From NCBI RefSeq assembly GCF_048403405.1, contig NZ_CP183135.1: 64,000 bases of DNA; one strand, given 5' to 3'. The DNA is from Escherichia coli. GTDB taxonomy: Bacteria; Pseudomonadota; Gammaproteobacteria; Enterobacterales; Enterobacteriaceae. Shown here in pieces: positions 14,317-18,228 of the stretch. The first letter of the stretch is position 1. The number at the start of each line of letters is the position of its first letter. A model generated the notes under the pieces. It was not told the origin of the DNA and searched no databases. It saw nothing but the letters and a program-made list of their open reading frames with translations. The position numbers and the translations under genes are program-made.

Positions 14317-14481
14317 GCTATTTTTTCCACCATTTCTGGTGTTATTTCCGGTTTTTACTGAGATCTCTCCCACTGACGTATCATTTGGTCCACCCGAAAC
14401 AGGTTGGCCAGGGTGAATAACATCGCCAGTTGGTTATCGTTTTTCAGCAGCCCCTTGTAGGGGTCCGCTTGGAAAACGGAA

Positions 14482-15808
14482 TCTATGGTCACTCCCGTTT
14501 TTGCAACACCGATTTTGACGACAAGTTGGCTTGCTTGAATCTATCCGGCGTCTGAATGGGATTTTATTCCCGCGCCTTGATGAGTTCCGCGCCTGATGAA
14601 CCTCCAGAAAATATACGGCTTCAATGAGCCTTTCCGTTTTACAGGTTCCTCAACAGGCCGGTGGGCCGTTAGTATCATCAATATCAGTATTCGCAAAACC
14701 AGATCAGTAATTCTTTAAACCGGTGTATTTCTGCCGTTATGCTACATAAGTTTGCTGTCGTGCCGTTAGGGCCCAGGCTATTCTGGCCAGCTTGTTTGCC
14801 AGAGCACAAGTGACGACAAAGTTGCTTTTCCGGCACAGTAAATCCCTGACCCAATCGGCCAATTTGCCAGACTGGTGTTCCAGTTTTTGTATGAATACCC
14901 TGGCACATTGAACCAACAAAGTTCGGATCTTTTTATTACCTCGCTTACTAATTCCCAGCAATGTCGTCCTACCTCCCGTGCTGTACTGCCGAGGTACAAG
15001 CCCTGTTGCCGCCGCAAAGTCACGGCTGCTGGCGTACTGCTTCCCGTCGCCAATCTCAGTTGAAATAGTACTCGCTGTCAGTGTTCCGACGCAGGGAATG
15101 CTCAGCAAGCGCTGTCCAACCTCATCTTCGTCCAACTTTCGTTTCAACTGGGATTCCAAATCTTTAATCTGCTCAACAAGATAGTGATAATGCTGTTGTA
15201 ATTTCAGCAATAACTGGCTGAGGTAAAGAGGCAAACTATTATCCTCAAGAATGGTACTCAGTCGGCTAATAACGGCAGCTCCTCGGGGAACGCTAATGCC
15301 AAATTCCAGCAGAAAAGCATGCATTTGATTGGTTGTTTTTACCTTATCCTGAACCAGGGATTCACGGACACGATGCAGAGCCCGCATTGCCTGCTGAGAT
15401 TCCGTTCTGGGCTGCACAAAACGCATAGACGGACGCGATGCAGCTTCACAAATAGCTTCGGCGTCGACAAAGTCGTTTTTATTGCTTTTAACGAACGGGC
15501 GGACAAATTGTGGTGATATCAGCTTTGGGGAATGCCCCAACTCTTCCAACTTGCGTGCCATAAAGTGAGAACCGCCACAGGCTTCCATTGCGATGGTTGT
15601 AGCGGGGCATGTCGCCAAAAATTCGATCAACTTTGGCCGGGTAAATTTTTTACGGTAAACAGCCTTCCCGCGACGATCCTGGCAATGAATATGGAAAGAG
15701 TTTTTACCCAGATCGATACCAATGAGCGCAATGTTTTCCATGATAGTTCTCCGAATGAAAGCCTGTCCTCAGCATAGTACCGGGAAGGAGGGAGTGACCA
15801 TCTCATTA
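14482..15808 (-). mobile_element. IS5075/IS4321-like element (IS110 family, IS1111 group); ends approximate
   Basis: Transposase ORF recognised; subterminal inverted motifs GGTCACTCCC / GGGAGTGACC; ~1327 bp between the two IR halves. Confidence 0.75.
14737..15741 (-). CDS. IS110-family transposase (IS5075/IS4321 type)
   Basis: ORF-track protein MENIALIGIDLGKNSFHIHCQDRRGKAVYRKKFTRPKLIEFLATCPATTIAMEACGGSHF... (334 aa). Confidence 0.9.
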   Translation of the reverse strand: MENIALIGIDLGKNSFHIHCQDRRGKAVYRKKFTRPKLIEFLATCPATTIAMEACGGSHFMARKLEELGHSPKLISPQFVRPFVKSNKNDFVDAEAICEAASRPSMRFVQPRTESQQAMRALHRVRESLVQDKVKTTNQMHAFLLEFGISVPRGAAVISRLSTILEDNSLPLYLSQLLLKLQQHYHYLVEQIKDLESQLKRKLDEDEVGQRLLSIPCVGTLTASTISTEIGDGKQYASSRDFAAATGLVPRQYSTGGRTTLLGISKRGNKKIRTLLVQCARVFIQKLEHQSGKLADWVRDLLCRKSNFVVTCALANKLARIAWALTARQQTYVA

Positions 15809-15819
15809 ATTATCCCACG

Positions 15820-18228
15820 CTAAGACTGTTTTTTGTACAATATGGTGTCGACTGTGCGTAATGAGCGGTATTTTCCGGATCCCAGCTTAAGATTATTACG
15901 CCAGACGTAATCTCCACTCAGATTGATATGTTCCCAGCCCAGGGGAGAAAGATGAGATACCAGTTGCTCATTTATCGGGATACCTTTTCGTTTTAGTGAC
16001 TCAATAGCTCTTTCTATATATACCGTGTTCCACAACGTGATCGCCGCTGTCAGTAACGTCAGCCCGCTGGCGCGGTAACTCTGATTCTCCAGCCCACGAT
16101 CCCTTATTTCACCCAGACGGTGCATAAAGACCGCTCGCGCAAGGGCATTACGGGCCTCACCCTTATTCAGCCCCGCCTGTACGCGTCGGCGCAGACCGGG
16201 ATCACGGAACCAGTCCAGCATAAATAGTGTCCGCTCAATGCGGCCAATCTCTCTCAGCGCTTTGGCAAGTCCATTCTGTTTTGGGTAACTGGCTAACTTT
16301 TTCATCATCAGCGATGCGGTGACTGTCCCCTGCTTAATCGAGGTTGCCAGGCGCAATACCTCATCCCAGTGTGCCTCAATGTCTTTGATATTCAGGCTGG
16401 TTGTTGATATGACGGACTGAAGCCCCGGATAGCGTTCGGCCTTTCCATGAATAAACAGCCGCTTGTCATGAAGATCCCGGATCCTCGGCGCAAAAGCGAA
16501 TCCCAGCAGGTGCATCAGGGCGAAAACATGTTCAGTGAAGCCTGCGGTATCGGTGTAATGCTCGGTAATTTCCAGATCGCTTTCATGGTACAGCAGGCCA
16601 TCAAGCACGTGGGTTGAGTCGCGCACCCGGCTGATCACTTTGGCATAGAACGGGCTGTATTGGTCTGAGATATGCGTATAAATCTGCACGCCCGGCTCCT
16701 GACCATATTTAAGATTGACCTGACCGGCATAACGTCCGTGACTGCCTACCCGAAAGTTCTGCCCGTCTGACGATGATGTTGTCCCGTCGCCCCAGAATGC
16801 GGCCAGAGGCCGCGCTTTCTGAGCGTTGACCAGCTCGGCCAGTGCCGCTGAATAAGTTTCATCTCTGATGTACCATGCCTGAATACCTTCGAGTGACGAT
16901 TTTGTTGCCCCCGGGCAGGACTCCGCCATTTTTGTCAGCCCCAGATTGATGCCGTCGGCCAGAATGGTGGTCAGCAACAGTCTTCCGTCTTTTGGTCTGA
17001 CGTTATTATTTTTGAGGTGCGCGAAGTGACGCGTAAACCCCGTCCAGCTGTCCACTTCTTCCAGTATCTCTGTAATTTTCGGATGAGGAAGCATGCCATA
17101 AACCAAATCGGCAAAGGGCGAAACACCCGAAGGGACGCTGTTCTCCAGCGGAGTGATTTTTACTCCTTTATCTGAAATATCAACATCGGGCAAATCACCG
17201 GCAAGCGCCATCGCGTTAACTTCTTCCAGACGCGATGCAAGAAGCGTCATACGGGCCTGAAGATATGCCTGGCAATCGGTCTGAACGGCCAACTGTAACT
17301 GGTCATTGTGGCGGGATTTCTCAAACTCAGCAGTCGGGATGAGATAATCATCAAAATTTCTGTAGCGGCGCGATCCTTTTACCCAGATATCACCGGAACG
17401 TAGCGCCCCCTTGAGTTCATTCATTACGCAAAACTCGTAGTACTTGCGGTCGATTCCTGAAGGCGTGAGTACCAGTTTTCGCCAGCTTTCAGGGATAAAT
17501 CCTGTTGGCGCCGATAGCGGCACTTTACGAAGTTGTTTACGGTACATTTCCCTGATGGTGTCCAGCGCATCGCTGAGCGTCTGCGCCGCAGGTGTCGCCA
17601 TGAACTGCAATGCTGACAGCATACGCGGGGCGTATTTACGCAGCGTACTGTATTTTTCGGTGATCAGGTGAAGCGGGTCGAAATTGCCCTTACGGGACAG
17701 AAACCGTGTTTCTTCCAGGCTGTTGATGAACTCCTGCCAGGGAAGGACATCTTCTATCGCTGCCCAGGGATCTTCACCGGATTCTCTGGCATGCAGTAGT
17801 GCCTGACCGACAGTAAAATATTGCTTCAACTTGCTCTGGATGAGTTTCCCCGTCAGCTGAAGCCTCTCGGCTTGTGTGCGTTTTGCCTGGCTGAACAGAG
17901 TGCCCAGAATACGTTCGTGCAGTTCGATAACCTCATCAGTCAGTGTGGCCCGCGCTTCCTGAATGACACAAACCAGCGTAGCGTAACGTCTGACATCGGT
18001 GAATTTAGCCAGATCTCTGCTGCTCATTTTCCGGCCCTCACGCGCCAGTTTAAGCAACCTGTTCTGGTGAACGGAAAGTGCAATACCATCAGGCAACCCC
18101 AGCGCAGCGATGGAATTAAGCCGGTCGATATGTTGCAGCACATTTTTACCGTTTATTTTACCCGGAGGCTGTAGCAGCCATGCCAGACGGGAAGGTTGTT
18201 CACCCTCTGATATGAGCAGGCTGTCGAG
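15820..18228 (-). pseudogene. tnpA: Tn3-family (Tn21-subgroup) transposase TnpA, N-terminal ~190 codons removed by IS26
   Basis: The 999-aa track ORF is TnpA-like only downstream of the IS26 boundary; its first ~190 aa are antisense read-through of IS26. Confidence 0.85.

Follow-up and report, generated by a model that had tools for sequence, protein, structure and literature searches.

Insertion sequences (IS) of the IS4321/IS5075 pair reportedly insert at a fixed site in the 38-bp terminal repeats of Tn21-type transposons, Partridge and Hall 2003 being the source cited for this behaviour. Here we analyse one such element at positions 14460..15824 of a 64-kb stretch of DNA (hereafter the window) from an IncF-type resistance plasmid of Escherichia coli (contig NZ_CP183135.1), where it splits a terminal repeat of a Tn3-family transposon remnant. 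Its closest known counterpart is IS4321 of the IncP-1beta plasmid R751, which has the same length of 1327 bp, the same 12-bp subterminal repeats, and the same insertion site and orientation. In IS1111/IS110 elements, the long non-coding end gives rise to an RNA on which the transposase relies, and short segments of this RNA match both strands of the target (PMC11187229). Such RNAs have been described as seekRNA in IS1111 members (PMC11187229), and for 93% of IS1111 elements a bridge RNA has been predicted, located in the right end (PMC11208160).

Taking all lines of evidence together, we consider it very probable that the window holds an intact copy of IS4321, in its canonical site and orientation, within a dead remnant of a transposon from the Tn21 branch, and that the target was chosen through an RNA guide. 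The IS is 99.7% identical at the nucleotide level to one R751 copy (L005 13404-14729), from which it differs at few bases, and 97.1% identical to the second R751 copy. Copies with 100% identity were found in Klebsiella quasipneumoniae, K. michiganensis and Superficieibacter. The transposase open reading frame is intact and matches the ‘IS110 family RNA-guided transposase’ profile NF033542 (E 7.5e-102) as well as the Pfam families PF01548 (DEDD_Tnp_IS110, E 1.3e-20) and PF02371 (Transposase_20, E 4.4e-20). Its motif GLVPRQYSTG fits the GL-P----(S/T)G motif of IS1111-group transposases (PMC11187229). In a 100% identical record, the Prokaryotic Genome Annotation Pipeline (PGAP) names the protein WP_000427623.1, IS4321 family, with no pseudogene flag. 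The non-coding DNA is unevenly divided, with 67 nt upstream of tnp versus 255 nt downstream (14482..14736). If the IS ends were joined as a circle (...GACCATAGA^TAATGAGATGG..., the caret here and below marking the junction or insertion point), the junction would read TTGCAA-17 nt-GATAAT, a predicted sigma-70-like promoter that is consistent with what is known of the family. As far as can be read from sequence, the element has all the features that define IS4321 and the IS1111 group within the IS110 family.

The exact insertion site can be read directly. The outer 22 bp and the inner 16 bp of the split repeat join to form the 38-bp sequence GGGGTCCGCTTGGAAAACGGAAATTATCCCACGCTAAG, which is found unsplit, as the tnpA-side end of a complete relative of the host transposon, in K. 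pneumoniae p1_085031 (L003 6979..7016), and also in a plasmid of E. coli AR_0014 (L040 3979..4016), where it lies in the same context of IS5 fragment, tnpA fragment and IS26. The insertion is therefore clean, with no target duplication and no deletion; the placement of the junction is ambiguous by one base (A). Using the R751 and R100 sequences as the reference for the insertion position, we found that one R751 copy of IS4321 splits, between positions 22 and 23, a repeat (GGGGTCGTCTCAGAAAACGGAA^AATAAAGCACGCTAAG) identical to that of Tn21 in R100. The window copy occupies this same position and orientation, with tnp pointing out of the transposon, whereas the repeat that it splits is a variant of the Tn21 sequence. 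Also, a survey in which one genome per species was scanned with a 30-nt IS end yielded 30 loci, and position and orientation were identical at every transposon-repeat site recovered. The sequence AAACGGAA hardly varies among 34 unique left flanks, sites outside transposon repeats included. The right flanks follow A(A/T)TA(T/A), with AATATC or AATATA at the non-repeat sites. Several insertions (L010, L015, L018, L027, L030 and L032) have only a core of about 13 nt, (A)AAACGGAA^AATAT, in common with the repeat. This pattern agrees with the published 13-bp core and with the insertion hot spot in ureC (PMC8269217).

These results bear on an earlier note on this DNA, made without database searches, which had described an element with an IS110-family transposase inserted at a fixed position in a Tn21-type repeat next to the tnpA stop. 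The coordinates of the split repeat (14460..15824) proved exact, both halves and the 1327-bp element reading as described, and the profile matches above bear out the family of the transposase. The alignment to the IS4321/IS5075 target position, named beforehand as the comparison on which the proposal hung, places the insertion exactly as in the Tn21-type repeat of R751 and as at all repeat-type sites of the survey. An IS4321 copy in its fixed site is in itself a textbook arrangement, already known and present verbatim in public records.

The host transposon is an immobile remnant, of which the window contains one split repeat and the 3′ 2.4 kb of tnpA. The tnpA fragment lacks its first 192 codons, which are cut off by IS26 at 18229. 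It matches NF033527 (1038 bits over profile positions 174-954) and PF01526 (E 2.5e-150), and is described by PGAP as ‘Tn3 family transposase, incomplete, missing N-terminus’. The stop codon TAG, the complement of 15820..15822, falls within the repeat, at its positions 34-36, as it does in Tn21 of R100. A 999-amino-acid ‘full-length’ tnpA reading frame (15820..18819) is an artefact that appears because the tnpA frame runs on into IS26, its last 591 bases being the opposite strand of IS26. No second repeat of the host transposon was found in the 64-kb window at three or fewer mismatches, and no tnpR, res or cargo of the host transposon was detectable there by homology. The note's proposal that the transposon is immobilised thus stands, with the qualification that the IS26 cut may predate IS4321. 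Its suggestion of looking for the other transposon end beyond the second IS26 (21234..22053) was followed, and an IS66-family element interrupted by IS100 lies there, with no transposon end. Two candidates for further repeats were discarded: CACGCTAAG at 41633 stands alone as a 9-mer, outside any repeat, and the 38-mer at 3377..3414, which differs from the repeat at 12 positions, has a counterpart in K. pneumoniae p69-1 that follows the gene of a different IS110-family transposase.

Comparison with Tn3-family references shows that the parent belonged to the Tn21 branch of this family and was not Tn21 itself. Its repeat is related to the Tn21 repeat, both being of the type GGGG...TAAG (GGGG...ACGCTAAG in Tn21 of R100/NR1), with 30/38 positions identical and 8/38 different. 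The tnpA stop position is shared, and TnpA aligns end to end with that of Tn21 at 56% identity. Much closer are unnamed Enterobacterales transposons with a 994-amino-acid TnpA (K. pneumoniae p1_085031; WP_021242989.1), which have an identical 38-bp repeat and to which the fragment is 97% identical in amino acids and 94.8% in nucleotides. These relatives are complete, with tnpA, tnpR and cargo, whereas the window copy is a fragment. In full-length relatives, tnpR is divergent from tnpA and its product is only 34% identical to TnpR of Tn21, and the cargo consists of redox/stress genes, chrA-padR-arsC or sulP-usp. Tn21 has instead co-directional tnpR-tnpA, mer and In2, and the relatives have no mer operon or integron. 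The TnpA, repeat and TnpR values together therefore place the parent in the Tn21 branch and apart from Tn21, as the earlier note had supposed. The comparison that it proposed excluded Tn21 and yielded no Tn number: neither a cluster of 1929 proteins, labelled only ‘Tn3 family transposase’, nor literature searches provided one. We rejected Tn5403 as the parent, the identity to Tn5403-family TnpA being 33%; in K. quasipneumoniae pKP18-31-IMP (L002), a Tn5403-family tnpA seems rather to be interrupted by the host transposon. In that plasmid the Tn5403-family tnpA frame (annotated as 906 amino acids) ends at the repeat and IS4321. A unit of repeat, IS4321 and tnpA (3360..6080) is apparently inserted in the 3′ part of that tnpA, and the annotated Tn5403 coding sequence runs on into IS4321.

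Three alleles of the locus share an identical junction between the IS5 fragment and the repeat. Allele (a) is an empty site, in which the IS5 fragment is followed by an intact 38-bp repeat and the truncated tnpA. It is present in about 136 complete E. coli genomes, as counted by matches to a 501-bp probe spanning the IS5 fragment, the intact repeat and the beginning of tnpA, and its IS26 junction was confirmed in E. coli AR_0014 (L040) to be the same as that of the window. Allele (b), the window type with IS4321, was found in only a handful of genomes, two of which are 100% identical (for example pCREC571-1). Allele (c) has the same order of IS5 fragment, repeat positions 1-22, IS4321 and repeat positions 23-38, followed by the passenger end of the same transposon instead of tnpA. 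It occurs in many E. coli plasmids, for example in AR_0137 (L007 3620..5000, L008), where the cargo end encodes a hydrolase, DMT, an aminotransferase, SDR, DsbA, an alkene reductase, Trx, TetR and OsmC. By subtraction from the junction count, allele (c) is probably the most common form. The best explanation for it is an inversion between two IS4321 copies, one in each end of a transposon that was formerly complete.

The existence of allele (c) raises the alternative that the split repeat of the window itself arose by inversion, through homologous recombination between two inversely oriented IS4321 copies, with its 22-bp and 16-bp halves coming from different transposon ends. The identical junction running into a passenger end in many E. 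coli plasmids would accord with such an origin, as would a related transposon (L004) that carries IS4321 in both ends in inverted orientation. However, allele (a), with its roughly 136 genomes, gives the window type by one simple insertion, and the window IS differs at 3 positions from the AR_0137 copy (L007) while being 100% identical to copies in other genera. We therefore regard an origin by inversion as unlikely. In the simplest reading, allele (b) arose from allele (a) by a single insertion of IS4321 into the already truncated remnant. The same tnpA/IS26 junction is also found in an allele lacking IS4321, so that IS26 may have cut tnpA first, in which case IS4321 entered a dead remnant and did not kill the transposon. 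The order may also have been the reverse, with (a) derived from (b) by precise excision of IS4321, or inversion may have been followed by precise excision. At the far end of the L004 transposon (13546..14872), IS4321 has an outer half of Tn21 type (GGGGTCGTCTCAGAAAACGGAA) on one side and a different inner half (AATATCCTACGTTAAA) on the other; this transposon has either two unlike ends or a recombinant, hybrid repeat.

Given insertion by IS4321 into the intact repeat, we asked how the site may be recognised. The 255-nt region downstream of tnp is predicted to specify an RNA core in which AAAACGGAAA and UAUAUUUUC face each other as the two strands of an internal loop, bounded by CCU/AGG and by a longer outer stem. 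The putative 5′ guide AAAACGGAAA matches the repeat at 10/10 positions, a length of match reached in 14/2000 shuffles. The second segment, UAUAUUUUC, sits 16 bases downstream of AAAACGGAAA, past a GGCU/AGCC hairpin, and fits the Tn21 repeat at 8/9 positions and one non-repeat site at 9/9; at the other non-repeat site it is mismatched only at the last base. The non-coding core differs between IS4321 and IS5075 at 1/160 positions (0.6%), versus 7.8% in tnp. Across the aligned relatives, 97% of cells in the proposed stems pair and there are 2 compensatory changes, most stem pairs never varying. Of two candidate donor guides, CUCAUC and AUAGAU, the first is invariant in relatives with the same IS ends, and both are consistent with being as invariant as those ends. 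A third candidate, CTCATT at positions 109-114 of the non-coding region, where the target loop has its cap, was rejected, as the sequence there is unrelated in relatives with the same IS ends.

We propose that an RNA made from this region would carry the internal loop, that its 5′ strand AAAACGGAAA and 3′ strand UAUAUUUUC would match the two DNA strands of the core AAAACGGAA^AATAT, and that the DEDD transposase would then join a circular IS copy at the core without target duplication. The insertion position would be fixed because the IS picks its target by base pairing and not via the machinery of the transposon. The sequences show the identity of the IS, its site, the clean join, the truncation, and the match of guide to target with its co-variation in relatives; that the RNA is made, is bound to the transposase and directs the reaction we infer from published IS1111/IS110 members. 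IS4321 resembles elements with described seekRNA or bridge RNA (ISEc11, ISKpn4 and ISPa11; IS621) in several respects: a long non-coding region lies downstream of tnp, the transposase has DEDD and Transposase_20 domains, and short segments of the RNA (predicted in IS4321) match both target strands and overlap where the IS inserts, the 5′ segment preceding the other (PMC11187229, PMC11208160). In contrast to these systems, the guide map of IS4321 is a prediction and its donor part consists of candidates. What is new here, mildly so and as an application of a known mechanism, is an explicit guide map for IS4321 together with its naturally re-targeted relatives. Such a map was not found spelled out in the literature searched; it may sit in the supplementary tables of the 2024 bridge-RNA work.

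The relatives provide a natural comparison. Four elements with termini identical to those of IS4321, although only 75-92% related to it overall, were found on a Morganella contig and on plasmids of K. oxytoca, K. michiganensis and Serratia fonticola. In the same loop position they carry GUGGUUAGGAAU, or GUGGUUAGGAGA in the S. fonticola copy (L043), and on the guide side they are flanked by TGGTTAGGAA, TGGTTAGAA or TGCTTAGGAA. The combination of the same termini with a different loop and a different flank thus points to natural re-targeting of one scaffold. A fifth relative, in pO104_H21 and 75% related, has kept guides of the IS4321 type and is located in a transposon repeat. We think it likely that one RNA loop explains the fixed-site and fixed-orientation targeting of IS4321 and IS5075, with AAAACGGAA^AATATA as the ideal target, and the natural re-programming seen in these relatives.

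Recognition of the whole repeat by protein, either the IS transposase or a Tn3-family TnpA bound to the repeat, would dispense with an RNA guide. This was an open possibility before 2024, and most sites are indeed full 38-bp repeats. It is difficult to reconcile with the six insertions that share only the core of about 13 nt, with the publication of ureC as a non-repeat target (PMC8269217), with a target here on a remnant that has no functional TnpA, and with a loop that co-varies with the flank among relatives of unchanged termini. We judge recognition by protein to be very improbable.

Several observations nevertheless weigh against RNA guidance as we have drawn it. No experiments on IS4321 RNA were found in the literature searched, and the 2024 papers mention IS4321 only through a target logo or in reference lists. 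Rfam 15 gave no match to a bridge or seek RNA family, the only hit being a chance snoRNA at E = 0.9, and the fold energy is unexceptional (z = -1.5). The proposed stem GGCG/CGCC is broken in one relative (L023), and covariation is thin because the stems hardly vary. The 3′ guide UAUAUUUUC fits the repeat of the window at only 7/9 positions, with mismatches at repeat positions 24 and 28; among the re-targeted relatives its fit to the right flank is poor, at 7/10 positions in L041 and 4/10 in L042. The assignment of donor guides depends on 6-nt matches only.

The earlier note had called the element IS5075-like, which holds for its target, length and termini and fails for its identity. Matches to the IS in a plasmid collection form two groups, of at least 99% and of 90-95% identity, corresponding to IS4321 and IS5075. 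Isoforms usually share about 95% nucleotide identity or more, and the window IS is only 93.4% identical to a PGAP-labelled IS5075 copy in a Hafnia plasmid (L006), against the 99.7% to an R751 copy of IS4321. That Hafnia copy shares the orientation and a near-identical non-coding core with the window IS and splits a near-identical repeat with one base different (ACTCTAAG). Thus, although IS5075 is equal in length, termini and target and its transposase differs at only 7/334 residues, the possibility that the element is IS5075 is negligible, given these identities and the assignment of the identical protein to the IS4321 family by PGAP.

Features of the locus and of related elements (window coordinates unless a locus is named; guide and RNA features are predictions).
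Feature	Position	Strand	Description
Repeat, outer 22 bp (positions 1-22), GGGGTCCGCTTGGAAAACGGAA	14460..14481	+	equals positions 1-22 of the intact L003/L040 repeats
Repeat, inner 16 bp (positions 23-38), ATTATCCCACGCTAAG	15809..15824	+	holds the tnpA stop codon
IS4321 copy	14482..15808	-	1327 bp; tnp transcribed outward from the transposon
IS4321 transposase gene, intact	14737..15741	-	334 aa; DEDD/RuvC-like N-terminal and Transposase_20 C-terminal domain, motif GLVPRQYSTG
Subterminal inverted repeat ATGGTCACTCCC, 12 bp	14485..14496	.	3 nt inside the IS end
Subterminal inverted repeat GGGAGTGACCAT, 12 bp	15790..15801	.	7 nt (CTCATTA) inside the IS end
Predicted seekRNA/bridge-RNA core	14536..14670	-	putative; within the 255-nt 3′ non-coding region
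Predicted 5′ target guide AAAACGGAAA	14631..14640	-	matches repeat positions 14-23 exactly, across the insertion point
Predicted 3′ target guide UAUAUUUUC	14607..14615	-	complement of GAA^AATATA; weaker support than the 5′ guide
Candidate donor guide CUCAUC	14579..14584	-	compared with IS end CTCATTA; hypothetical
Candidate donor guide AUAGAU	14539..14544	-	complement of A^TCTAT across the circle junction; hypothetical
Tn3-family tnpA 3′ fragment	15820..18228	-	802 aa, residues 193-994 of 994; DDE_Tnp_Tn3 domain kept, N-terminus missing
IS26 truncating tnpA	18229..19048	+	820 bp; starts GGCACTGTTGCAAA
IS5 fragment abutted by the transposon end	14208..14459	+	terminal repeat 14208..14223
Relatives with IS4321 termini and subterminal repeats	L036 1..260; L041 1485..2845; L042 1485..2840; L043 1485..2840		loop GUGGUUAGGAAU / GCUCAAAUUUAUA, beside TGGTTAGGAA-type sequence

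Elsewhere in the window, the IS26 copy that truncates tnpA and a second, inversely oriented copy (21234..22053, minus strand) enclose aac(6')-Ib-cr, blaOXA-1 and a truncated catB as the common IS26-bounded resistance module. At 1089..3180 lies an ISVsa5 (IS10-like) element with IS1 inserted in it; the outer end of ISVsa5 abuts a 149-bp IS26 fragment (3181..3329), following the annotation of pCREC571-1. An 85-bp stretch (3330..3414) between this fragment and a truncated dsbA-like gene matches K. pneumoniae p69-1 DNA located 200-290 nt downstream of the gene of a different IS110-family transposase. This stretch probably represents the 3′ non-coding end of another IS110/IS1111-type element, which IS26 has cut, and the 26/38 likeness of 3377..3414 to the transposon repeat is probably due to chance.

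We suggest that the locus be annotated as a dead Tn3-family remnant whose tnpA-end repeat carries IS4321, beside an IS26-bounded aac(6')-Ib-cr/blaOXA-1 module. Its practical value is as a lineage marker, as the occupied, empty and inversion-type variants are all found in E. coli plasmids. Because the insertion made no duplication, precise excision would restore the repeat, but it would not revive the transposon, as tnpA is truncated. If the loop model is true, accidental sites such as ureC would be explained by the same loop, and the locus would be a natural worked example of an RNA-guided IS that uses conserved transposon ends as a safe harbour.

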